Assembly (NCBI GenBank): GCA_050239825.1
Contig: JBFXGO010000004.1
Span: 4,590 to 68,589, forward strand
DNA length: 64,000 bases
Origin: a bacterium
GTDB lineage: Bacteria; Hydrothermota; 32-111
Direction: 5' to 3'
Positions 11,530 through 64,000 of this stretch are shown piece after piece. Within the stretch, counting starts at the first letter, position 1; every line of letters begins with the position of its first letter. A model generated the notes under the pieces. It saw only the letters and a list, made by a program, of their open reading frames with translations. It was not told where the DNA came from and ran no database searches. A program made the translations under genes and the position numbers.

Positions 11530-12987
11530 GTGAAGCGTCTGTTGACTATAACTGTAATTGTCGCACTTTTATTTGCGTGCGGCATAATTTCTGCAACTCT
11601 TGTGCAGAAAGCCAACTGCCAGACAGAGACAGTTAAAATCAATGGCACTAATGGTGCGGCTCTGACCCTCCCTTCATTCAGGGAACTGGCAAAGAATGTG
11701 ACGCCCGCAGTGGTTCACATCACAGCCGAGAGCAGCGTGAAAGTGTCGCCGTTTTTCCCTTTTGATGACCCTTTCTTCCGCGACTTTTTCAAAGATATGC
11801 CTGAGTATGAGAATAAGAATACTTCAATGGGCACAGGATTCATCTTTGATAAAAACGGAAGCATAGTTACAAACTACCATGTCATAAAGAATGCCAAGAA
11901 AATAACCATAAGACTACTTGACGAGCGCGAATTCTCAGAAGATGAGATTGAGATAGTCGGAACTGACGAGAGAACCGACATTGCAGTCATAAAAATAAAA
12001 AAGGTATCGGATATGCCTTATCTGGAATTTGGAGATTCCGATGAGATGGAGGTGGGAGACTGGGTTATGGCTGTGGGCAATCCGTTCGGATTTGACGGCA
12101 CAGTCACAGTAGGAGTCATATCAGCTAAGAACCGCTCCAACATTGCGCTTTCAGGCGGACCAATGTATCAGGATTTTATACAGACAGATGCATCGATAAA
12201 TCCTGGCAACAGCGGCGGGCCTCTGGTTGATTTGAACGGCCATGTTATAGCTGTAAATTCCGCCATTGCATCACCCTCAGGCGGAAATGTGGGGATAGGA
12301 TTCGGTATTCCCTCCAACATGGTTGTCATGGTTATAAATCAGTTGAAAGAGAACGGAGTGGTATCGAGAGGATACCTTGGGATAGTTCCTCAGGAGCTGA
12401 CTAAAGATCTAAAAACAAAATTCGGCATGGACGCCAAAGAGACCGGGGTTCTTGTTGCGCAGGTGGAAGCAGAGACTCCTGCATCCAAAGCAGGATTAAA
12501 GGAGGGCGACATAATACTCCAGTTCAACGGAAAGAAGATTGAGAGTGTAAACAAATTCAGAATAGCCGTAGCCGAAACCCCGGCAGGAAAGAGGGTGGAG
12601 ATTCTCATTTTAAGAGACAAAGAAAAGAAGACTCTCACTGCAGAGATAGGGAAGCTTGAAGAGGAAACAGTTGCAAACAATGATGAAAAGAATGCGAAGC
12701 CGGGAGAATGGCTCGGAATGACAGTCGAGTCTTTAACGGATGAAAACATCTCAAAATATTCGGTTGCCGTAAAAGATGGAGTAGTCATTACCGCAATAGC
12801 CAAAGATTCTCCTCTTATTGACGCAGGCGTTAGAGTGGGAGATGTCATAACAAAGATTGAATCCTTTAAAATAAAAAATATGTCTGATTTTAGTAGCGCG
12901 AAGAAAAAATATGAAAAGAATAATGATGTACTTCTGACTGTCAAGAGAGGCAACACTTCAATCTGGGTGGTTGTAAAGGCAAAATAA
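11530..12987 (+). CDS. htrA: Periplasmic serine endoprotease DegP/HtrA family (protease + 2 PDZ)
   Basis: 485 aa. Catalytic triad context TNYHV...D...GNSGGPLVDLNGHVIAVNSAI, followed by two PDZ-like segments. Signal peptide present; GTG start. Confidence 0.9.
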   Translation: MKRLLTITVIVALLFACGIISATLVQKANCQTETVKINGTNGAALTLPSFRELAKNVTPAVVHITAESSVKVSPFFPFDDPFFRDFFKDMPEYENKNTSMGTGFIFDKNGSIVTNYHVIKNAKKITIRLLDEREFSEDEIEIVGTDERTDIAVIKIKKVSDMPYLEFGDSDEMEVGDWVMAVGNPFGFDGTVTVGVISAKNRSNIALSGGPMYQDFIQTDASINPGNSGGPLVDLNGHVIAVNSAIASPSGGNVGIGFGIPSNMVVMVINQLKENGVVSRGYLGIVPQELTKDLKTKFGMDAKETGVLVAQVEAETPASKAGLKEGDIILQFNGKKIESVNKFRIAVAETPAGKRVEILILRDKEKKTLTAEIGKLEEETVANNDEKNAKPGEWLGMTVESLTDENISKYSVAVKDGVVITAIAKDSPLIDAGVRVGDVITKIESFKIKNMSDFSSAKKKYEKNNDVLLTVKRGNTSIWVVVKAK

Positions 12988-18477: not shown

Positions 18478-18963
18478 TTACTGTATTTCGAATTTTACCG
18501 CCTTAAAATCTTCTATGAGTTTTTCTGAAATGTCCAATGAAAGTTTGGCTGTCTGCTCAACTATCTTTTTTGCCTCCTCCAATTTCACCTCTTCGATTCT
18601 CTTAATCCTCAGGAGTAGCGCCAGGTTTTTCTCAATGCCTAAAGTAAAACCGTTCAAATACATATTGCTCTCAAGGAGAGCCCTGTAAAATGGCAGAATA
18701 TTCTTCTCGGGAAGAAATACAATGGGGGAAATTACTTTAAGATAGATTTTTTCGTCCTCGCTTTTGAAAACATATATGTAAACATAGACAGTTCCAATAT
18801 TGACCATCCATCCGAGAGTATCCTTGCCCTCCATCTCGATTTTCGATTCGTCATGCGATGTCCCTAGGGCTGAGAGAAGCTCTCCGATAAGCATCGATGC
18901 TTCGTCAATCGTGTCGATTTTATCCGATGCAAAGAATGTCTTAAAAAGATTGTTCAATGTCAT
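18478..18963 (-). CDS. YbjN-like hypothetical protein
   Basis: 161 aa. Size and pattern resemble YbjN-domain proteins. Weak call. Confidence 0.35.
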   Translation of the reverse strand: MTLNNLFKTFFASDKIDTIDEASMLIGELLSALGTSHDESKIEMEGKDTLGWMVNIGTVYVYIYVFKSEDEKIYLKVISPIVFLPEKNILPFYRALLESNMYLNGFTLGIEKNLALLLRIKRIEEVKLEEAKKIVEQTAKLSLDISEKLIEDFKAVKFEIQ

Positions 18964-19739
18964 CTGTTCTCCGTAAGCTTATGGCCGCAGAAGGCGCACC
19001 ATCTGCTCTTTTTTAGATTTGTTTTTCCGCATGCCTCGCACTTGTTTGTCTTCTTCTTGTGTTTGTGTTCAATTTCCGGAAGAATTGTTCCGCACTTTAA
19101 GCACCATTTTTCATCCGATTCGGTGTAAGCTCCGCAGTTGGAGCAGTATCTGCTGTTTTCAATCGCTTTGAATTTAAGAAGAGACTCTTTTACAAGAGGC
19201 ATTATGTCAGAAACTGGAATGGCGAATCCTATTCCCGAAGCGTCGGCTATTTTAAGAGTGTTTATGCCTATAACATTACCCTTCATGTCCAACAAAGGAC
19301 CGCCGCTGTTGCCCGGATTTATCGCCACATCCGTTTGAATGTATTTGATATCCTGAATCTCCCTGTCTACCGCCGAAATTATCCCTTTGGTGACCGTATT
19401 TTCATACCCGAAAGGATTCCCATATGCTATAACAGAGTCCCCAATCGCGTATGTCTTTGTCAAAGGCATCTTTGCCTGAACTATTTTTTTTTCTGTATCT
19501 ATCTTTATAAAAGCAATGTCCCTCGCAAAGTAGGAGAGAAGGACTTTTCCTTCTATGGTCTCCTTGTCAAACAAAGTAACCGTGCATGTCTTGAAGCTTC
19601 CAACCACATGAGAATTTGTTATAACTATTCCGCGTCTATCCGCTATAAATCCAGTTCCTATGCTCTCCTCAGTCTGTATTGTCACGATGAATCTGCGGAC
19701 TCTTCTTATGAGCGAAGAAACGGAATCAGATTTTGCCAT
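18960..19739 (-). CDS. Trypsin-like serine protease domain fused to a C-terminal double zinc ribbon
   Basis: 259 aa. An S1C-type protease core (GTGFIAD...TNSHVV, GNSGGPLLDMKGNVIGIN) is followed by CSNCG...CLKCG...CEACG...CAFCG with no PDZ domain. Confidence 0.7.
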   Translation of the reverse strand: MAKSDSVSSLIRRVRRFIVTIQTEESIGTGFIADRRGIVITNSHVVGSFKTCTVTLFDKETIEGKVLLSYFARDIAFIKIDTEKKIVQAKMPLTKTYAIGDSVIAYGNPFGYENTVTKGIISAVDREIQDIKYIQTDVAINPGNSGGPLLDMKGNVIGINTLKIADASGIGFAIPVSDIMPLVKESLLKFKAIENSRYCSNCGAYTESDEKWCLKCGTILPEIEHKHKKKTNKCEACGKTNLKKSRWCAFCGHKLTENR

Positions 19740-33240: not shown

Positions 33241-33296
33241 AAAAACATTATAGAGGGTATAGGCAAAAAATCAATATACTCTTTCAGAAGGCGGCG

Positions 33297-33595
33297 GGGG
33301 GTGAAATTTGTGAAAATCAAATGGATGGAAGAAATAGTTTATCTCGATTGGCAACAATTCCACTGTTTCATCAGGACACATAATAGAAGCATCATAGAGA
33401 TGAAATTTTGGGATCTTGTTTTCAAAAAGAACCATATTAATCACATAAAACAGACACTGTTAAAGAATTGAAGAACTAAGAAAAAACATTGGAAATTTGA
33501 CTTTTAATACACAGTTAAAAGCAAAACTAAAGAATCATAACGATAAAATTCGGAACTTCAAAACATTTTCACAAATTTCACCCCCCGCCGCCTTT
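33297..33595. repeat. 28-30-bp perfect inverted repeat pair flanking ~240 bp (MITE-like/large stem-loop)
   Basis: aaggcggcggggggtgaaatttgtgaaaat at 33299-33328 is exactly complementary to attttcacaaatttcaccccccgccgcctt at 33566-33595. The pair sits in a 360-bp intergenic gap between two minus-strand genes. Confidence 0.7.
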
Positions 33596-33599
33596 TTTG

Positions 33600-44294: not shown

Positions 44295-45830
44295 TCAGTA
44301 TTTGAAAGAGGAATTTCCTATAAATTCCCTCAACACCGAGGTGGGTGGAATGAACTCCATGGATATCGGCTTGAAGAACGAAAGTATGAATTGAAGCCTC
44401 TTTGCATCAAGGTAATGCGGCTTCTCCTCGGTAATCCCGCCAAGCAGGGGTTCGGCAAAGTTTTTTAGCACGGAGAGCTCGTACAACAGAGATGAATTGA
44501 ACATGAAATCGGCAGTCTCCTGAAATGGGAATATATTCTTCTCTTCTCCGCGTCTGACCGAACGCCACATTTCAAGGGTCTGGTCAGCAGAATGGTTTCT
44601 GAACAGATAATCCCTCACGAGCCTCCTGATAAGACGGTTGTCGGTAGTTGATATCCTGTGCGTGCTGTCAATGTTTATCTGAGTTAAAGCGGAAACATAT
44701 ATTTTTGCCTTCTTCTCCTTTGGAACAGATTTTGTCAGTTTATCATTCAAGCCGTGGATTCCTTCGATTATCAAAATCGTGTTTTTTTCAAGTTTAGCTC
44801 TCTTTGTCTCCTTTTTTCTCACTCCCAGAGTGAAATCAAATACCGGAAGCTCCACTTCTCTGTTCTCAATGAGTTCAATCAGATTTTTGTTGAAGAGTTC
44901 AAGGTCGATTGCGTCTATCGATTCATAGTCGAATTCATTGTTTTCATCTTTGGGTGTCTTCTCTCTGTTTACGAAGTAATTGTCAAGCGAGATTCCCGAA
45001 ACGGAAATGCCAAGCACGCGAAGTTGAACCGACAATCTTTTCAGAAATGTAGTCTTTCCGGAAGACGAGGGTCCTGCAATTGAAATGAGTCGTAGGCGGT
45101 TTCTCATTGAATCTATCTGATGGGCTATGTCAACTATCCTTTTCTCATGAAGCGCCTCTGACACCTGAATGAGTTCGGCTATCTCCTGCCTTTCAATTGA
45201 ATCCTGCAGATTTTCGACAGACCTCCAGTTTAGGATCTTAGCCCAGTTTTCGGATTCGTTGAATACATTAAAAAGCTTCTTCTGATCGTTTTTTTCAAAT
45301 GCCCTTCCGCTGAAAATTATTATTCCCGGAGGATAATATTTAATATATGCACCTTCAAGAAGAGAGGTCTTCGGCACAACCGGAGTGAAGAAAAAATCTT
45401 TTGTCCAGTTGAACTGTGCGAAGAATGCTCCATTCACGGATGAATTCTCCAATAGATACTTTTTTTTGCTGTCATCTTCAAATAGGGTGATAAGCTCATC
45501 CCTCTTTTTAAACTTCGCTGTAATCATCTCATCGGATTTTATTATCTCCTGAAGCTTCTCATTCATTTCATCTATAGTTTTTTCACTGATGAGCACCGGT
45601 GAGAATATTTCGCAGTAGAGCCCCCCATTGATAGTGTGTTCGACATTAAGTTCACTATCCGGGAACATCGAATTCATTATTGATTTAACAACCAATATCA
45701 GGGAGTTTTGAAGAACAAGCTTGCCGTACATTGAATCGGAATAAACCGAAGACAAATCCGAATAATCACTCTCGCATGAGAGCGGTATTAGTCTGTCGTT
45801 TTTTCTGTAACATACTGTTTTTCCGTTCAT
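44295..45830 (-). CDS. Long-form uridine kinase/phosphoribulokinase-family P-loop kinase with N-terminal TGS-like extension
   Basis: Walker A IAGPSSSGKTT followed by the uridine kinase fold. The ORF-track start at 45896 would translate through the tRNA (the RVGGSNPPTS artefact), so the start is moved to the ATG at 45828-45830 (MNGKTV...). Confidence 0.65.
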   Translation of the reverse strand: MNGKTVCYRKNDRLIPLSCESDYSDLSSVYSDSMYGKLVLQNSLILVVKSIMNSMFPDSELNVEHTINGGLYCEIFSPVLISEKTIDEMNEKLQEIIKSDEMITAKFKKRDELITLFEDDSKKKYLLENSSVNGAFFAQFNWTKDFFFTPVVPKTSLLEGAYIKYYPPGIIIFSGRAFEKNDQKKLFNVFNESENWAKILNWRSVENLQDSIERQEIAELIQVSEALHEKRIVDIAHQIDSMRNRLRLISIAGPSSSGKTTFLKRLSVQLRVLGISVSGISLDNYFVNREKTPKDENNEFDYESIDAIDLELFNKNLIELIENREVELPVFDFTLGVRKKETKRAKLEKNTILIIEGIHGLNDKLTKSVPKEKKAKIYVSALTQINIDSTHRISTTDNRLIRRLVRDYLFRNHSADQTLEMWRSVRRGEEKNIFPFQETADFMFNSSLLYELSVLKNFAEPLLGGITEEKPHYLDAKRLQFILSFFKPISMEFIPPTSVLREFIGNSSFKY

Positions 45831-45838
45831 AAAATTTA

Positions 45839-45910
45839 AGCTGGTGGGCGGATTTGAACCGCCGACCCGCGCTTTACGAAAGCGCTGCTCTACCACTGAG
45901 CCACACCAGC
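45839..45910 (-). tRNA. tRNA-Thr (anticodon CGU)
   Basis: The reverse complement folds as a cloverleaf: acceptor GCTGGTG/CACCAGC, D-arm GGCTCAGTGGTAGAGC, anticodon stem GCGCT/AGCGC with loop TTCGTAA (anticodon CGT), T-arm GGCGG-TTCAAAT-CCGCC. CCA is not encoded. Confidence 0.8.
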
Positions 45911-48247: not shown

Positions 48248-49510
48248 ATGAGAATTGAGTGTCCAAAATGTCACAAAAAATATGAAGTTGAGGATATGTA
48301 TATTCCTATAGGCGGAGGACCTGTAAGATGCCCCAATTGCAAAAATATTTTTGGGATCTATGTTGAGCCGATGGATATTCCCATGACAGAGATAATTGAA
48401 GATGACGAACAGCCGGCCGCTTCAGCAGGAACCCCTTTTACCACACCTGAGATAGGAGAGACATCCTTCTCACCGGAATATGCGCCTCAGGAGGAGCAGG
48501 CGAATTCACCTGCAGACAGTGATAACCTCTCCGAGCAGTTGAATGACCTCGGCAGTTTCTCAAGCTCCGTTCCTGAAACAGAGACTGCATTCGCACAGCC
48601 GACGGAAGAGACTCAGAATTTCGGCAATATATCATTTGACCCTGCCAAATCAGCTCCTGTGGAGGAGGCAAAACCCTCATTTTCTCAAAGCATGGATGAT
48701 TTTGGAGTTCCTCCAGCATTTGCTCAGCCTGCTCAACCTAAAACAGCAGAGCCTGCAATGCCTGATTTCGGAGCAAGTCCATTTGCACAGCCAAAACCTG
48801 CCGCTCCTCAAACACAGGACTTTGGAGTCCCTCCAGCATTTGCTCAGCCGACTCAGCCTAAAACAGCAGAGCCTGCAATGCCTGATTTCGGAGCAAGCCC
48901 ATTTGCGCAGCCAAAACCTGCCGCTCCTCAAACACAGGACTTTGGAGTCCCTCCCGCATTTGCTCAGCCGACTCAACCTAAAACAGCAGAGCCTGCAATG
49001 CCTGATTTCGGAGCAAGTCCATTTGCGCAGCCAAAACCTGCCGCTCCTCAAACACAGGACTTTGGAGCAGTGCCTCCAGCATTTGCTCAACAAAAGCCGG
49101 TAGAGCCTGTGACACATGAACCTATGCCTTTTCCTGCTGCAAAACCAGCACCTCAACCCCAGCAATCGGCTCCTGTCGGACATATAAAGCCGGGCGGAGC
49201 AATGTTTGATGTTCTTCTCGCAGGATTCAATCTTCCGCCGAATTTCAGCTCTATGCCTGAAAACATGCAGAAGGTTCATAAAGATGCCGTCAAGCTTGCA
49301 CGACAACTTGCAAAGGACATTCTCCTATACCATAAAGATGAGGTGGAGAAGGGTATGGCAAATGGAAATATCAAAGAGTCTATGAAGGATGAAATTGAAA
49401 AATCTTATAAATTCTATACACAGAGAATTCAACCTGAAATAATTTCAAGCAGCAATTACTTCAATGAAGCATTGAATAAAATTGTAGCAAAAGGACAGAA
49501 GATTTTTTAG
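48248..49510 (+). CDS. MJ0042-type zinc-ribbon protein with Pro/Ala/Gln-rich tandem-repeat linker and helical C-terminal domain
   Basis: 420 aa. N-terminal CPKCHKKYEV...VRCPNCKNIF, then three identical 40-aa repeats, then a C-terminal helical domain of about 110 aa. GGAG lies 7 nt upstream of the ATG. Confidence 0.7.
   Translation: MRIECPKCHKKYEVEDMYIPIGGGPVRCPNCKNIFGIYVEPMDIPMTEIIEDDEQPAASAGTPFTTPEIGETSFSPEYAPQEEQANSPADSDNLSEQLNDLGSFSSSVPETETAFAQPTEETQNFGNISFDPAKSAPVEEAKPSFSQSMDDFGVPPAFAQPAQPKTAEPAMPDFGASPFAQPKPAAPQTQDFGVPPAFAQPTQPKTAEPAMPDFGASPFAQPKPAAPQTQDFGVPPAFAQPTQPKTAEPAMPDFGASPFAQPKPAAPQTQDFGAVPPAFAQQKPVEPVTHEPMPFPAAKPAPQPQQSAPVGHIKPGGAMFDVLLAGFNLPPNFSSMPENMQKVHKDAVKLARQLAKDILLYHKDEVEKGMANGNIKESMKDEIEKSYKFYTQRIQPEIISSSNYFNEALNKIVAKGQKIF
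48701..49060 (+). repeat. Perfect 120-bp tandem direct repeat x3 (in-frame, inside CDS)
   Basis: The unit tttggagt(t/c)cctcc(a/c)gcatttgctcagcc...cctcaaacacaggac occupies 48701-48820, 48821-48940 and 48941-49060 with 3 or fewer mismatches per copy. A degenerate fourth copy follows. Confidence 0.85.
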
Positions 49511-51877: not shown

Positions 51878-52669
51878 CTATCCCCTTCTTATACTCTCCT
51901 TTAAAAGTCCGTATGCTTTCTGCCCTGAAAGAAGCATTCCGCCAAATATAGGACCCATCCTGAATCCTCCGCACACTCCATTTGCGGCCATGCCTGAAAC
52001 AAAGAAATTTTTGTAAATTTCTTTTGTGTTTTCGACTGTCTGTTTCTCTCCTACTTCCGCATTCATCGGCTTCTCTCCTTCAAATTCTCCTGACGGGGTG
52101 TTAAGCCTGACTCCTGCCTTTTTAACCAGAGTATTCGCAAGCTCCGCGGGATGCCCTGTTGAATCCATCACAGTTTTTGAATAGACGGTTATAGGGTCGA
52201 CATGAAGCCCCATATGCTCAACCGGAGTCCAATTTATCACAATTCCGCACACTGAATCATTCTTAAAGACAGTGTCAACAACTTTTACAAGATTGAAGAG
52301 CTTCGCTCCTGAATTCACGGCAGAGTTTATAAGCGCGGAAGTGCACTCAACAGAATCGCATGTAAAGTAATCATCGTTATGCTCCTTCACTCTCACATTG
52401 AACATTTTGAGAACATTTAGAGCCTCTCTCTGCACTACTATTTCATTGAACATCATTCCGCCGCCCCACATGCCGCCTCCGGGAGCAAGTTTCGATTCAT
52501 AGACCGCAACATTAAATCCGTCTTTCGCCAAAAGAGCTGCCGCCACAAGACCTGACGGACCTGCGCCTACTATTGCGGCATCAAGATGCAATGAATCTTT
52601 CAGCTTCTTAAAGTAAGAGTCTATTATCAGTTCGCTCACCTTTGTGTCATCAAGCATTTTAACCTCCAT
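51878..52669 (-). CDS. thi4: Thi4-family thiazole synthase (archaeal/eukaryotic type)
   Basis: 263 aa with FAD/NAD-binding AIVGAGPSGLVAAALLAK and the conserved GMWGGGMMF motif of Thi4. Confidence 0.85.
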   Translation of the reverse strand: MEVKMLDDTKVSELIIDSYFKKLKDSLHLDAAIVGAGPSGLVAAALLAKDGFNVAVYESKLAPGGGMWGGGMMFNEIVVQREALNVLKMFNVRVKEHNDDYFTCDSVECTSALINSAVNSGAKLFNLVKVVDTVFKNDSVCGIVINWTPVEHMGLHVDPITVYSKTVMDSTGHPAELANTLVKKAGVRLNTPSGEFEGEKPMNAEVGEKQTVENTKEIYKNFFVSGMAANGVCGGFRMGPIFGGMLLSGQKAYGLLKESIRRG

Positions 52670-52699
52670 TAAGAATAAAAAAAATCAGGGGAACCTGAT

Positions 52700-52795
52700 T
52701 TTGTAATTTTCCTACGGCAGAATTACCTGCATCAGGTTCAAGGGTCAGCGGAAAAGACCGCTTTCTCAGCCACTTTTAGTAGCTCCCCAAATAGA
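52700..52795 (-). promoter_or_regulatory. TPP (thiamine pyrophosphate) riboswitch controlling thi4-thiE-thiC
   Basis: The minus-strand sequence reads GGGGAGC...GGCUGAGA...GACCCUUGAACCUGAUGCAGGUAAUUCUGCCGUAGGAA. This matches the THI-box consensus CUGAGA...ACCCUUUGAACCUGAUCUGGAUAAUGCCAGCGUAGGGAA. It is followed by the hairpin aaatcaggggaacctgattt before the RBS and start. Confidence 0.85.
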
Positions 52796-52839
52796 TTAAA
52801 CACCATATCAAACATAAAGTCAAGACCCGCATCTTAAAA

Positions 52840-54116
52840 ACGCAATCTGACAGGTAATTCAGTTACGAGTTTCGGGTTGCGGGTTACGAGTTTAAATACA
52901 ATAGGACAGATGATTAAATGACTTGTCTTTACATTTCCGAGGAAAAATTCCAGTACAGCCAGCAAAACAGCCGTGAGCCGTGTGCCATGTGCCTTGAGCT
53001 TAATACGGGGAGTTGAGTAAGATTTTGCCTTTACATTTCCGAATGAGAAGCCTGTCCACAGCGCTCGTCTTTTCAATGCTTCTCATGAGGACAATCAATT
53101 AAATAACTTATTGATACACGAAAGCTACAAGTCGGCGAGGACGCTTCGCGCAGACGCCCATCAAGTGGTTCTCTCCTCGCTCCGCTAACCCATCTTGATA
53201 TAGCGGCGAAGCGGAGTGTGCGAGCCGACGCTATGCCCGCGTGCAGCCAGCAAAACAGCCCTGAGCCGTGTGCCATGTGCCATGAGCTTAATACGGGGAG
53301 TTGAGTAAGATTTTGCCTTTACATTTCCGAATGAGAAGCCTGTCCACAGCGCTCGTCTTTTCAATGCTTCTCATGAGGACAATCAATTAGATAACTTATT
53401 GATACACGAAAGCTACAAGTCGGCGAGGACGCTTCGCGCAGACGCCCATCAAGTGGTTCTCTCCTTGCTCCGCTAACCCATCTTGATATAGCGGCGAAGC
53501 GGAGTGTGCGAGCCGACGCTATGCCCGCGTGCAGCCCCAGTTCAATCTTCAATTATCAATCAACAATAAAATGATAGACCCTTCACGATAGTCATAACCA
53601 CAGAGGCGTTCAGGGTGACACGGTTGAGTAAGATTTTGTCTTTACAATAATCTTCACAAAGTTCTGGTGCAACCCGAGGCGTCTATCATGTGCGTTCGCG
53701 CACATTACACCCTCGCCAATGTGGGGACATTCCTTCGGTGTGTCCCCACTGCAACATTCAATTAATTAACTTATTGATACACGAAAGCTACAAGTCGGCG
53801 AGGACGCTCCGCGAAGACGCCCATCAAGTGGTTCTCTCCTTGCTCCGCTAACCCATCTTGATATAGCGGCGAAGCGGAGTGTGCGAGCCGACGCTATGCC
53901 CGCGTGCAGCCCCAGTTCAATCTTCAATTATCAATCAACAATAAAATGATAGACCCTTCACGATAGTCATAACCATAGAGGCGTTCAGGGTGACACGGTT
54001 GAGTCATAACCATAGAGGCGTTCAGGGTGACACTATTGAGTCATAACCACAGAGGCGTTCAGGGTGACACGGTTGAGTAAGATTTTGTCTTTACAGACTG
54101 GTGTTCAAGCTGACGC
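52840..54116. repeat. Repeat-dense GC-rich non-coding region: nested direct repeats and hairpins
   Basis: A 288-bp unit at 52955-53247 recurs nearly identically at 53243-53535. A third copy of its 142-bp sub-unit lies at 53769-53910. The 37-mer tcataaccayagaggcgttcagggtgacacggttgag occurs once at 53591-53627 and as three tandem copies at 53966-54076. The motif ttgagtaagattttgyctttaca recurs five times. The module ttcagttacgagtttcgggttgcgggttacgagtttaaatacaat lies at 52858-52905. Confidence 0.85.
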
Positions 54117-54869
54117 TTACTCTTCTAACAACCTCAAAATTCCGTTTATAACTGTCAAAGGGTGCACAGGACAACCGGGTATGTATAAATCAATTTTATG
54201 ATTTTTCATAAATTCTCTATTCAATGCATCTGACCCTGAAAAGATTCCACCGCTAATTGCGCATGCTCCTGCCAGTATGATGATTTTAGGTTCAGGCACT
54301 GCTTTGTATGTCTCCTCAAGCGCCTCTGCCATATTCTCACTCACCGGTCCCGTTATTATTATGCCGTCTGCATGGCGCGGGCTTGCCACAATATCCACTC
54401 CGAATCTTCCCATATCAAAATTGACATTTGAACACGCATTAAGTTCCATCTCACATCCATTGCATCCTCCGGCTGAGACTGAGCGAAGTTTCAATGATTT
54501 TTTGAAGATTTTTTTTATGTCGGCTCTTGTTTTAATGGCGTCTCTGAACCTAATCTTATATTCAGTATTTGCCGTCACTATAAGCTTCTCCCTCGAATCG
54601 CATGAAATTCTGTGCTCATCAGTAAATTTCACAATATTCTCCCCGAGCTTTCTTTCGCACTTCCCGCAGAAAGTGCATTTGCCGAGGTCTATCGAGAATG
54701 GCGCATTTAAAATTGCATCGGCAGGGCAGAGACCCTCTATTTCGCTTTTGATTAGATTCTCTTTCTTAATTTCAGGGAATCCCCTGAACATCTCATTGAC
54801 TTTTGCATTTTTAACATCAGGTATAAACTGACGCCCCTGTCTTAATGATATTTTTATGTTTTCAAACAT
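54117..54869 (-). CDS. Complex-I/hydrogenase small-subunit homologue (NuoB/HyfI-like) with N-terminal degenerate ferredoxin segment
   Basis: 250 aa. Proximal [4Fe-4S] ligand motifs GGCNGCEMEL, GACAISGG and PGCPVHP. The N-terminus (CP...CTFCGKC) is a half-degenerate 4Fe-4S ferredoxin motif. Confidence 0.8.
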   Translation of the reverse strand: MFENIKISLRQGRQFIPDVKNAKVNEMFRGFPEIKKENLIKSEIEGLCPADAILNAPFSIDLGKCTFCGKCERKLGENIVKFTDEHRISCDSREKLIVTANTEYKIRFRDAIKTRADIKKIFKKSLKLRSVSAGGCNGCEMELNACSNVNFDMGRFGVDIVASPRHADGIIITGPVSENMAEALEETYKAVPEPKIIILAGACAISGGIFSGSDALNREFMKNHKIDLYIPGCPVHPLTVINGILRLLEE

Positions 54870-62029: not shown

Positions 62030-62165
62030 CAAAAGTGATGTGCGAGACGGCGCTACACCCGAGTGCAGCCACCAAAGCAGCCTTCAATAATAAAAGATAA
62101 TTCAGTTACGAGTTTCGGGTTACGGGTTACGAGTTATGAGTTTAAATACAATATGTATCGAGACT
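62030..62165. repeat. Second copy of the repeat family seen at 52.8-54.1 kb
   Basis: gtgcgagacggcgctacacccgagtgcagcc...ccttcaataataaaagata...taattcagttacgagtttcgggttacgggttacgagttatgagtttaaatacaat is a near-identical set of modules to 53215-53247, 53536-53575 and 52855-52905. Confidence 0.7.
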
Positions 62166-62508: not shown

Positions 62509-64000
62509 GTGAAAAAAGTTATTTTTATTATCATTATTATTGCTTCAGCATTGTTTGTTTTTGCTTCAAATGAGAGACCATTCAGAGAAGAGGATATGCT
62601 TCTTGCTAACTTTGAACAACCGGAAGATTACAATCAACCCAACTGGGCGACAGATAGTTTGAATGTAAGGGGAGTAGGAATTTATCCTTTCTTTGGAGAT
62701 GCATATGATGTTTTCATCGTAGATACATTAGCGTATTCTTGCATGAATAATTATCTAGTAGTGTTAAATGTTAAGAACAAAGCAAATCCTTTTTTGGTAG
62801 GTTATTTTAGTTTACCGGGTTATGCTTATGGTGTCTATGTTTCAGGAGATTATGCGTATGTTGCTGATGAGGATTATGGTTTACAGATAATAGATATCTC
62901 AAATCCTTCAAGCCCAACCCTTGCAGGGAGCTATGATACACCGAGTTATGCTTATAGTGTCTATGTTTCAGGCAGTTATGCCTATGTTGCTGATGAGGGT
63001 TATGGTTTACAGATAATAGATATCTCAAATCCTTCAAGCCCAACCCTAACAGGAAGCTATGATACACCGGATTATGCAAGGGGTGTCTATGTCTCAGGAG
63101 ATTATGCCTATGTTGCTGATGATAGTTCTGGTTTACAGATAATAGATATCTCAAATCCCATAAGCCCAACCCTTGCAGGGAACTATGATACACCGGATCA
63201 TGCATGGGGTGTCTATGTTTCAGGCAGTTATGCCTATGTTGCTGATGGTTATTCTGGTTTACAGATAATAGATATCTCAAATCCTTCAAGCCCAACACTT
63301 GCAGGGAGCTATGATACACCGGGTTATGCATTGGGTGTCTATGTTTCAGGCAGTTATGCCTATGTTGCTGATGCTGATTATGGTTTACAGATAATAGATA
63401 TCTCAAATCCTTCAAGCCCAACCCTTACAGGGAGCTATGAAACACAGGGTTATGCTTATGGTGTCTATGTATCAGGCAGTTATGCCTATGTTGCTGATTA
63501 TGATTATGGTTTACAGGTAATAGATATCTCAAATCCTTCAAGCCCAACCCTTACAGGGAGCTATGATACACCGGGTTATGCATGGGGTGTCTATGTTTCA
63601 GGCAGTTATGCCTATGTTACTGATCGTAATTCAGGTCTACAGATAATCAACATCTCTGACCCCACAAGCCCAACACTTGCAGAGAGCTATGATACACCGG
63701 GGTGGGCTTATGGTGTCTATGTTTCCGGCAGTTATGCCTATGTTGCTGATGATGATTATGGTTTACAGATAATAGATATCTCAAATCCTTCAAGCCCAAC
63801 TCTTGCAGGAAGCTATGATACACCGGGGAATGCTATAGGTGTCTATGTATCAGGCAGTTATGCCTATGTTACTGATCGTAATTCAGGTCTACAGATAATC
63901 AACATCTCTGACCCCACAAGCCCAACACTTACAGGAAACTATGATACACCGGGGATTGCAAGGGGTGTCTATGTTTCAGGAGATTATGCCTATGTTGCTG
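62509..64000 (+). CDS. LVIVD-repeat surface protein (signal peptide; runs off window end)
   Basis: GGAGG lies 7 nt upstream of the GTG. After the signal peptide VKKVIFIIIIIASALFVFA come 13 or more consecutive 40-aa LVIVD units (GVYVSGSYAYVADxDYGLQIIDISNPSSPTLxGSYDTPGxA), nearly identical at the DNA level. Confidence 0.8.
   Translation, partial: MKKVIFIIIIIASALFVFASNERPFREEDMLLANFEQPEDYNQPNWATDSLNVRGVGIYPFFGDAYDVFIVDTLAYSCMNNYLVVLNVKNKANPFLVGYFSLPGYAYGVYVSGDYAYVADEDYGLQIIDISNPSSPTLAGSYDTPSYAYSVYVSGSYAYVADEGYGLQIIDISNPSSPTLTGSYDTPDYARGVYVSGDYAYVADDSSGLQIIDISNPISPTLAGNYDTPDHAWGVYVSGSYAYVADGYSGLQIIDISNPSSPTLAGSYDTPGYALGVYVSGSYAYVADADYGLQIIDISNPSSPTLTGSYETQGYAYGVYVSGSYAYVADYDYGLQVIDISNPSSPTLTGSYDTPGYAWGVYVSGSYAYVTDRNSGLQIINISDPTSPTLAESYDTPGWAYGVYVSGSYAYVADDDYGLQIIDISNPSSPTLAGSYDTPGNAIGVYVSGSYAYVTDRNSGLQIINISDPTSPTLTGNYDTPGIARGVYVSGDYAYVA

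Follow-up and report, generated by a model that had tools for sequence, protein, structure and literature searches.

A 1.3-kb block of direct repeats (positions 52840-54116) lies between a thi promoter and an Ehr-like operon in the window, the whole 64,000-nucleotide stretch of contig JBFXGO010000004.1 analysed here. We propose, with a probability of roughly 0.7, that this block is a local pile-up of a new, lineage-specific family of interspersed repeats that are non-coding, modular and mostly palindromic, in the manner of BIME, BOX and ERIC elements. On the best reading, which leans on the analogy with those elements, the family would be previously undescribed, while its organization would be of a known kind and not a new system. 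The modules of the block are arranged in the order L-t-A-T-B-C-A-T-B-C-D-E-T-B'-C-D-E-E-E-T, where L is made of 7-nt tandem repeats, T is a 23-mer and t a truncated T, B and B' are hairpins, C is a 142-nt module, E is a 37-mer, and A and D are two further modules (Table 1). Dispersal, a constrained modular order, stem-loops and presence/absence polymorphism, by which an interspersed mosaic is recognized, were all found.

A site polymorphic for a dispersed repeat family

The extra DNA spans positions 52824-54116, from the stop codon of a NuoB-like gene to the -35 box of the thi promoter (~1.29 kb). The closest relative found, the metagenome-assembled genome (MAG) STE_119 (GCA_028698175.1, locus L019), encodes a NuoB-like protein 73% identical to that of the window and shows the same gene order: NuoB-like gene, thiamine pyrophosphate (TPP) riboswitch, thi4. 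Its intergenic region measures 195 bp in all and holds only the promoter and the riboswitch, with no T in the spacer. The stop codon is separated from the conserved promoter (TTGACT-17-TTTAAT) by 27 nt in STE_119 and by ~1.29 kb in the window; hence, the entire block is extra DNA in the window lineage. In a third lineage (NuoB-like protein 71% identical, three independent samples), a C module in reverse complement is found 12 nt past the same stop codon, and the contigs end at that module. The comparison of related genomes, a check suggested along with the original prediction of a structured-RNA locus or novel repeat element, thus shows that what this site carries of these elements clearly varies among lineages. 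The block is, accordingly, an insertion or expansion specific to its lineage.

Modules are also found outside the block, a fact missed in the original prediction, and the family is dispersed in a way that resembles BIMEs and BOX elements in function-independent terms. The T sequence was scanned against GTDB representatives, which do not include the source genome, and a T 20-mer was searched against 241 million metagenome records. The 20-mer scan yielded 14 loci, 11 of them from a single metagenome, Ga0172375. Loci L006, L012 and L017 share only the T 20-mer, look like chance matches, and were discarded as family members. In the 11 contigs of Ga0172375, T sits among homologous, reshuffled modules.

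Comparison of these contigs permitted the definition of a family unit, in which T is followed by a B-type hairpin, an optional module H, an AT-rich linker, C, a tail ending in CAGCC, and a segment X; the unit closes with GTTG and the next T. B-type hairpins belong to three types (B, B2 and B3/B') that have unrelated stems and one layout, with the foot of the stem 3-7 nt past TTTACA and a loop that ends in CAAT(G). H is a GGGGACA...TGTCCCC hairpin placed after the B-type hairpin, and the AT-rich linker of the Ga0172375 units ends in CTTATTGA. C exists as subtypes of ~140 and ~190 nt, and also as a single short form whose centre is replaced by H. X is variable, and consists either of 7-8-nt tandem repeats or of GATAGGTCCTTCACGA joined to an E-like segment or to a long hairpin that sometimes resembles a terminator. 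Alternatives are thus found at internal positions of the unit (B, B2 or B3 at one; A, D-E or X at another), and E is present once or three times. Fragments are common, and include the C tail alone, truncated T, truncated B, and B' without its 3' arm.

Eight contig ends, in 7 of the 11 Ga0172375 contigs, fall inside an element. In an independent assembly of the source sample (Logan SRR27751817), contigs end at the fourth T (T4), beside the truncated T, and where the L module of a second locus of the window begins. Contig stops inside modules are as expected of multi-copy repeats in short-read assemblies.

The neighbours of the elements are unrelated chromosomal genes, which encode RsgA, Fe-dependent alcohol dehydrogenase (Fe-ADH), cupin, M23 peptidase, TetR, Ser/Thr kinase, EamA, carbamoyltransferase, aminotransferase, diacylglycerol (DAG) kinase, ABC transporter and RNase P RNA. 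At 8 or more loci, a gene is transcribed towards the T-side end of the element, which falls at -14 to +36 nt relative to that gene's stop codon; this bias indicates that elements usually sit where a 3' untranslated region begins, as read on the strand opposite T. As a separate observation, the RNase P RNA of contig L014 (2855-3020; class A, 139 bits) is cut by the contig end and starts ~60 nt from the repeat element.

STE_119 carries one T-B' copy, located between two intrinsic terminators, and an L-like module (L002:130-228). Their presence indicates that the family predates the divergence of these lineages. An 8-nt tandem repeat (AAAAGTAA type, read on the T strand) was also seen in STE_119 in about 10 copies (L002 6047-6131), located between the end of a gene and the terminator ahead of the lone T-B'.

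The second family locus of the window lies upstream of the operon's regulator gene. Its L module is 85% identical to the first one and contains one heptamer more, and the Logan contig L031 breaks at its start. In two genomes, L modules (repeats of the GGTWCGA type, then GAGTTWAAATACAA) were observed upstream of canonical promoters that share their strand: the L at 62095-62153 of the window is ~260 nt upstream of TTGACA-17-TATGAT, and the L-like module of STE_119 (L002, 130-228) is ~75 nt upstream of TTGACA-17-TATCAT.

Composition and folding of the modules

The repeats that had been described from the sequence were recovered with independent tools. Tandem Repeats Finder detected the 288-bp tandem duplication (288-nt period, 52956-53536, 2.0 copies, 98% matches) and the triplication of the 37-mer (37-nt period, 53965-54078, 3.1 copies). 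Repeat search and a sensitive self-blastn detected the third copy of the 142-bp module (142-158 nt at 53754-53911, 96.8% identity to 53091-53248) and the double use of the 54-mer plus 37-mer (D+E, at 53536-53626 and 53911-54001). The same searches recovered an E+T block of 57 nt, present at 53590 and again at 54039. Differences are found at 5 positions between the two 288-nt units, at 2-3 positions among the C copies, and at 3 of 233 nt between the two uses of the C-D-E-T segment; no two of the three E units are alike.

Two statements needed correction. The 23-mer TTGAGTAAGATTTTGYCTTTACA had been reported in five modules; four exact copies exist (53013, 53301, 53624 and 54073), while the fifth (52923-52933) is an 11-nt truncated form, TTGTCTTTACA. 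In shuffled sequences, 0 copies of T are expected. The view of a GC-rich block in an AT-rich genome was overstated: the GC content is 48.6% in the block and 40.7% in the window, and only modules A and C reach 57-58%. We agree, on the other hand, that the repeat element is non-coding, that its module boundaries are sharp and used repeatedly, and that slippage alone is insufficient to account for it. The proposal of mobile or recombining elements fits the dispersed copies, the shortness of the relative's spacer at this site, and the contig breaks.

Table 1. Positions of the modules of the block, of the second locus and of the flanking features (copies are numbered from left to right)
Feature	Position	Strand	Evidence or remark
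thi promoter and TPP riboswitch (flank, outside the element)	52692-52823	-	Rfam; promoter kept in STE_119
L: heptamers GTTACGA/GTTTCGG/GTTGCGG/GTTACGA, then GAGTTTAAATACAAT	52852-52903	+	Second copy at 62095-62153
Truncated T, 11 nt (TTGTCTTTACA), then truncated B start (TTTCCGA)	52923-52933	+	Direct sequence reading
C-tail remnant GTACAGCC, directly before A copy 1	52953-52960	+	
A copy 1: GC-rich, 7-nt periodicity GTGAGCC/GTGTGCC/ATGTGCC/TTGAGCT	52961-53012	+	
T copy 1 (TTGAGTAAGATTTTGCCTTTACA), imperfect dyad GTAAGA-ttttg-(T/C)CTTTAC	53013-53035	+	Exact pattern match
B hairpin copy 1: 9-bp stem ATGAGAAGC/GCTTCTCAT, loop ending CAAT, AT-rich linker CAATCAATTAAATAA	53036-53105	+	
C copy 1: 142-nt irregular hairpin, conserved 5' CTTATTGA, 3' tail ...GTGCAGCC	53106-53247	+	
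A copy 2	53248-53300	+	
T copy 2	53301-53323	+	Exact pattern match
B hairpin copy 2	53324-53393	+	
C copy 2	53394-53535	+	
D copy 1: AT-rich 54-mer, 3' end (GATAGACCCTTCACGAT) homologous to start of Ga0172375 X module	53536-53589	+	
E 37-mer, single; final 3 nt are the first 3 nt of T	53590-53626	+	Homologue before T in L005, L008
T copy 3 (TTGT variant)	53624-53646	+	Exact pattern match
B': variant B-type, 5' part ATAATCTTCACAAAGTTCTGGTGCAACCCGAGG common to L002, L013, L008/L010	53647-53768	+	
C copy 3	53769-53910	+	
D copy 2, identical to D copy 1	53911-53964	+	
E 37-mer x3 head-to-tail, each slightly different	53965-54075	+	
T copy 4, right end of array	54073-54095	+	Junction confirmed by Logan L001
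NuoB-like gene (Oxidored_q6, PF01058), last of Ehr/Hyf-like operon (flank, outside the element)	54117-54869	-	Pfam
Second family locus: diverged C 3' tail and A start (62039-62082), then L (62095-62153)	62039-62153	+	

Conserved pairing was seen in an alignment of seven C copies, in which C forms an irregular hairpin of 30 pairs. The proportion of alignment cells that are paired is 94.9%, compared with 26-41% when the partners are slid by 1-3 columns. Seven pairs are changed on both sides, and these changes include a run of four adjacent pairs that is exchanged as a block from one subfamily to another, and the replacement of A-U by U-A in the ATCAWG/CWTGAT helix. On the + strand of the alignment, 12 cells are G-U and 5 are A-C; these counts, which stem from few independent events, weakly favour the + strand. 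Compensation is also seen in the stems of B, which read ATGAGAAGC/GCTTCTCAT in the window and GTGAGACGC/GCGTCTCAC in Ga0172375, and the stems of B2 and B3 are entirely different.

Folding of other modules was compared with that of shuffled sequences. B' holds two stable hairpins, one of them of the H type (GGGGACA...TGTCCCC), and folds much better than shuffles on both strands (z = -4.1 on the + strand and -3.3 on the - strand). In contrast, folding of A, D and E is no better than that of shuffles. The dyad of T (GTAAGA-ttttg-TCTTTAC; GTAAGAttttgTCTTTAC) is imperfect and forms a weak hairpin of -2 kcal/mol; the X hairpin has as its 3' arm the GTTGA directly upstream of this dyad. For the X module of L018, the z scores of the two strands are -5.7 and -7.5. 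On the minus strand, in and beside L, a hairpin with UUUUU after it was found (z = -3.7) a short way upstream of the thi promoter. Neither strand is consistently favoured by folding energies, and an attempt to choose the functional strand from them gave inconsistent results. Conservation of pairing is compatible with single-stranded DNA or with RNA of either strand.

Rfam 15 models were scanned against the block, the entire window and ten loci related to it, and no hit with E<=1 overlapped any module, so the scan proposed earlier left every module unmatched; elsewhere, Rfam matched the TPP riboswitch, a tRNA-Thr, and the RNase P RNA of L014 only. None of the six open reading frames (ORFs) inside the block, nor one at the second locus, had a Pfam hit. 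That the ORFs had been dismissed as spurious was correct: the minus-strand ORFs lack a Pfam match, and homologous C copies differ by 1-nt indels. No match to the modules was obtained among viral contigs, plasmids and phages, and no match to the T and C sequences was obtained in the literature.

Both features that flank the block are on the minus strand. The thi promoter (TTGACT at 52823-52818, a 17-nt spacer, and TTTAAT at 52800-52795) is followed by the TPP riboswitch (52692-52799; RF00059, 70.7 bits), which leads thi4-thiE-thiC; thi4 occupies 51878-52669. On the other side, the Ehr/Hyf-like operon encodes the Pfam domains Oxidored_q6, Complex1_49kDa, Proton_antipo_M and NADHdh; its NuoB-like gene is convergent to the + strand units of the block, and the last T ends 21 nt from the NuoB-like stop codon. 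The window is ordinary chromosome, as it encodes RpoD (regions 1.1-4), DnaG, AspRS and RecG, among others. The nearest named relatives of its AspRS are those of TA06 and WOR-3 bacteria, with 65% identity. RpoD is canonical in this organism, and so are the sigma-70 promoters of the window.

Additional repeats and features of the window can be summarized as follows:

(i). A perfect 30-nt inverted repeat (AAGGCGGCGGGGGGTGAAATTTGTGAAAAT; 33288-33317 and 33565-33594) flanks a 247-nt AT-rich segment. It lies in the intergenic region 33241-33599, and the orthologous genes are only 88 bp apart in the syntenic contig L027. The segment 33288-33594 looks like an insertion resembling a MITE (a miniature transposable element with inverted repeats) or an invertible segment.

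(ii). About 10 tandem copies of a 126-nt unit (42 aa, YAYVADxxYGLQIIDIS) occupy 62688-63995, inside an ORF that starts at 62509 (+) and runs off the window. This coding repeat is unrelated to the block. Judged by eye, the 42-aa repeat is presumably LVIVD-like.

(iii). Three tandem copies of a 120-nt unit, 95% identical, are found at 48698-49067, inside the ORF 48248-49510 (+).

(iv). A tRNA-Thr(CGT) gene (45839-45910, minus strand) overlaps the 5' end of the mechanically called ORF 44295-45896, which indicates that the true start of this PRK-family gene lies further downstream.

(v). An inverted match of 80 nt (76%) joins 12178-12257, in the trypsin-PDZ protease gene 11530-12987, to 19261-19340, in the ORF 18960-19739; the syntenic gene of L027 also has a trypsin domain. 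The match is probably paralogous coding sequence on opposite strands.

Known repeat families and alternative explanations

Comparison with known families was based on organization and not on sequence models of REP or BOX. Homology is not expected across phyla. The BIMEs of Enterobacteria combine REP (PU) palindromes with other short motifs. Like BIMEs, the family described here is extragenic, is a mosaic of conserved motifs in constrained order with small imperfect palindromes (T, H) that cluster, usually lies after gene 3' ends, varies in cluster size, and breaks assemblies. It differs in that no sequence similarity to enterobacterial REP is apparent, the modules are larger (140-190 nt in C), 7-8-nt tandem repeats are included, and the T copies are direct instead of alternating; the likeness is one of organization, and is not known to extend to association with RAYT, integration host factor (IHF) or gyrase. 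Short intergenic tandem repeats of 7-8 nt (L, A and the CAGCTTAC-type segment), present at several loci, also recall the heptanucleotide tandem repeats known as STRR in cyanobacteria, but the repeat sequences differ and the tandem repeats are here part of a larger mosaic.

A second parallel is found in the BOX repeats, which are composite, have a variable number of internal modules, form stem-loops, are over-represented downstream of genes, cluster together and generate spurious ORFs (PMC3049150). In Streptococcus pneumoniae and S. suis they are built as boxA-boxB(n)-boxC, and boxE/boxF measure 115-133 nt (PMC3049150). Our family shares the composite structure with a variable internal module (E once or three times, whole units one to three times), the stem-loops, the enrichment downstream of genes, the spurious ORFs that run through repeats, and the clustering of different repeat types. 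However, it belongs to another phylum, for which sequence homology is not expected, shows no IS-like terminal inverted repeats, and has more module types, with alternatives at one position (B/B2/B3; A/D-E/X).

Module C on its own is reminiscent of ERIC/IRU and Correia/NEMIS elements: it is an imperfect palindrome of 140-190 nt with conserved ends and an internal segment that is replaced or expanded in subfamilies and, by analogy, would probably be co-transcribed with neighbouring genes. Unlike them, C is never free-standing with terminal inverted repeats and a TA duplication, and is always found in a T...C...T mosaic or truncated. Lastly, hairpins kept by compensatory change, the absence of terminal inverted repeats and target-site duplications, and higher-order tandem clusters are shared with REPINs and RAYT and with palindrome-associated elements derived from IS200/IS605 (PMC3116915); clusters and tandem arrays of REP reach >700 bp (PMC3116915). 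The differences are that no Y1 transposase was seen in the sequences at hand, that H hairpins occur in both orientations, and that no regular inverted doublet is demonstrated.

Several observations weigh against the proposed explanation. T is conserved at 21 of 23 nt in a genome whose NuoB-like protein is 73% identical, beyond the other modules and beyond coding sequence; such exceptional conservation argues for a specific function or recognition over neutral junk. The copies of the source genome are known from 64 kb only, at two loci. The three lineages compared are approximately equidistant, and hence gain of the element cannot be polarised from loss. Neither terminal inverted repeats nor target-site duplications were identified. 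Finally, among the annotated ORFs of the window and the related loci, where positions 16-33 kb of the window were covered only by synteny with L027, there is no transposase, integrase or reverse transcriptase, and no Cas protein in the window. A single-copy Y1 gene flanked by the repeats, as a cognate RAYT would be, was likewise absent from the annotated ORFs of the 64 kb and the short related contigs.

The conservation of T suggests a protein partner, for which a Y1/HUH-type enzyme, another recombinase or an RNA-binding protein is a candidate. One may go further and consider T the recognition site of a conserved protein, and the T-bounded units (B + C + X) the mobile or expressed part of a new non-coding system peculiar to this TA06/WOR-3-related lineage. 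We regard this possibility as unlikely. If it were true, each insertion would bring a new T, which would explain both the head-to-tail arrays and the conservation of T above that of coding sequence. The conservation of T stops sharply after TTTAC(A), with the foot of a hairpin 3-7 nt away, an end that presumably recalls the TTAC plus subterminal hairpin of IS608-type elements or the recognition ends of IS200/IS605-type or RAYT-mobilised ones.

Quite unlikely, too, is that the internal arrangement of the block is in part an assembly artefact, with copy number or order (or both) made wrong by an assembler that threaded near-identical modules. The modules are multi-copy and longer than typical k-mers, related contigs break inside elements, and the Logan assembly breaks at both edges of the block as well as at the L of the second locus. 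Of the assembly check recommended in the original prediction, the part that concerns the edges gave a positive answer: L001 confirms the junction between the NuoB-like gene and T4, up to ~54075, and L030 that between the thi operon and L, up to ~52915. The Logan contigs stop there and do not span the interior, so independent confirmation applies to the two junctions and not to order and copy number over 52916-54075. Nonetheless, with both junctions to unique DNA confirmed and the flanks syntenic in the relative, the element at the site is real. Furthermore, the copies differ at defined positions (5/288; three E variants), and are therefore not the product of a simple graph loop, and similar multi-unit arrangements exist within single contigs (L009, L015) of another metagenome.

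A tandem array of structured non-coding RNA genes of ~290-450 nt, each with T as a promoter or processing signal, the B and C hairpins, and a 3' end, would make the dispersed copies paralogous RNA genes. Conserved blocks do alternate with stems that keep their pairing by compensatory changes, the G-U and A-C counts of C lean to the + strand, and T is extremely conserved. Moreover, many Ga0172375 units end in a terminator-like H hairpin and a U-run just before the next T, and the lone T-B' of STE_119 is flanked by two intrinsic terminators. The T at 53624 and the start of B' even provide TTGAGT-16-AATAAT. Nevertheless, a promoter and terminator scan of both strands of 52840-54116 detected one weak promoter-like site (53624-53651) and zero terminators, no more than in shuffles. 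If T is read as a promoter, the -10 position falls in variable sequence before B and B2, and TTGAGT is only 13 nt from TACAnT; thus, T offers no usable sigma-70 promoter before B or B2, though the organism has canonical RpoD and promoters. The lack of a consistent folding strand, the frequent fragments, the absence of Rfam hits, and the fact that units mostly point against the neighbouring gene also speak against RNA genes, an explanation that we consider very unlikely. Hence, the structured-RNA or small RNA (sRNA) half of the original prediction is not supported, though the hairpins do show compensatory changes.

Two narrower versions were also discarded: a tandem array of sRNA genes with a promoter and a terminator in each unit, for the same lack of terminators and the single weak promoter-like site, and a conserved master sRNA made of B' under a T promoter. 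The intact form of B' (B3, in L008/L010) is an ordinary B-type hairpin of 12 bp, and the B' copies lack its 3' arm.

It is highly improbable that the block is a cassette array generated by site-specific recombination (integron- or CALIN-like), with non-coding units inserted in series and crossover at T and its GTTGAGT. T does bound units on both sides (L009 and the window), the attC R' consensus GTTRRRY is matched in sequence by G/TTGAGT, the X hairpin, which has bulged bases, takes in by pairing the GTTGA found before the T dyad, and the E-E and E-T junctions fall exactly between GTTG and AGT; but the putative cassettes have no ORFs, the A-T and E-T units have no RYYYAAC partner at an attC-like distance, conservation runs 16 nt past the putative core, mosaic junctions are also found at the B-C and C-X boundaries, the relative's spacer has no T, no tyrosine recombinase is found among the annotated ORFs of the window or beside the related loci, and the elements are scattered singly among housekeeping genes instead of gathered in one array.

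Other known systems can be put aside briefly, and the original prediction was right in setting apart CRISPR arrays, attC arrays, group II introns and, as far as sequence shows, enterobacterial REP. In a CRISPR array, the spacing of T (288, 323 and 449 nt) would not be expected to vary in this way, and the "spacers" are themselves repeats. An integron attC array or CALIN, with or without IntI, would have ORF cassettes separated by attC sites of 57-141 nt with paired R''/L''-L'/R' boxes; in spite of the fit of GTTGAGT to GTTRRRY, cassette ORFs and the RYYYAAC partner in A-T and E-T units are missing and no integrase is annotated in the window. A MITE is contradicted by the absence of inverted repeat pairs in the block and of terminal inverted repeats at unit ends, with only a doubtful likeness (GACAGGT/GACTGGT) at the array edges. 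A type III toxin-antitoxin locus (ToxI-like), in which a tandem repeat of about 36 nt would directly precede a toxin ORF on its own strand, was considered for the 37-mer x3 followed by T and by the convergent 3' end of the NuoB-like gene, and rejected, as there is no adjacent toxin ORF.

Likely history and significance

If the block is a pile-up of interspersed repeats, as we favour, its history might be reconstructed as follows. The spacer of 27 nt that separates the thi promoter from the Ehr-like operon would have received, or kept, an element. Growth may then have occurred by unequal homologous recombination between the element's own direct repeats, which would explain the 288-bp duplication (98% identity) as well as the re-use of the C-D-E-T segment, while slippage may have produced the triplication of the 37-mer. 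If REP/BIME, ERIC and BOX are a guide, passive carriage of the array is most likely.

As no terminator is found between the operon and the block, the block is probably transcribed as a long structured 3' extension of the Ehr-like mRNA. Its hairpins could influence decay of the mRNA, or read-through that reaches the thi leader; a speculative possibility is that the minus-strand hairpin of L, followed by UUUUU, may stop read-through before the thi promoter is reached. A structured insert of 1.3 kb between a respiratory-complex-like operon and a riboswitch-controlled thiamine operon could thus affect both read-through and mRNA stability.

The family explains why the assemblies of these organisms fragment at particular intergenic spacers. 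Its set of modules (T, the B types, C, H, X and L) can be converted into models to mask or annotate repeats in MAGs, and to seek the mobilising enzyme. A new category of biology would be involved only if T defines a new mobilisation or RNA system. Otherwise, the family documents rich mosaic intergenic repeats in a poorly known, uncultured lineage.

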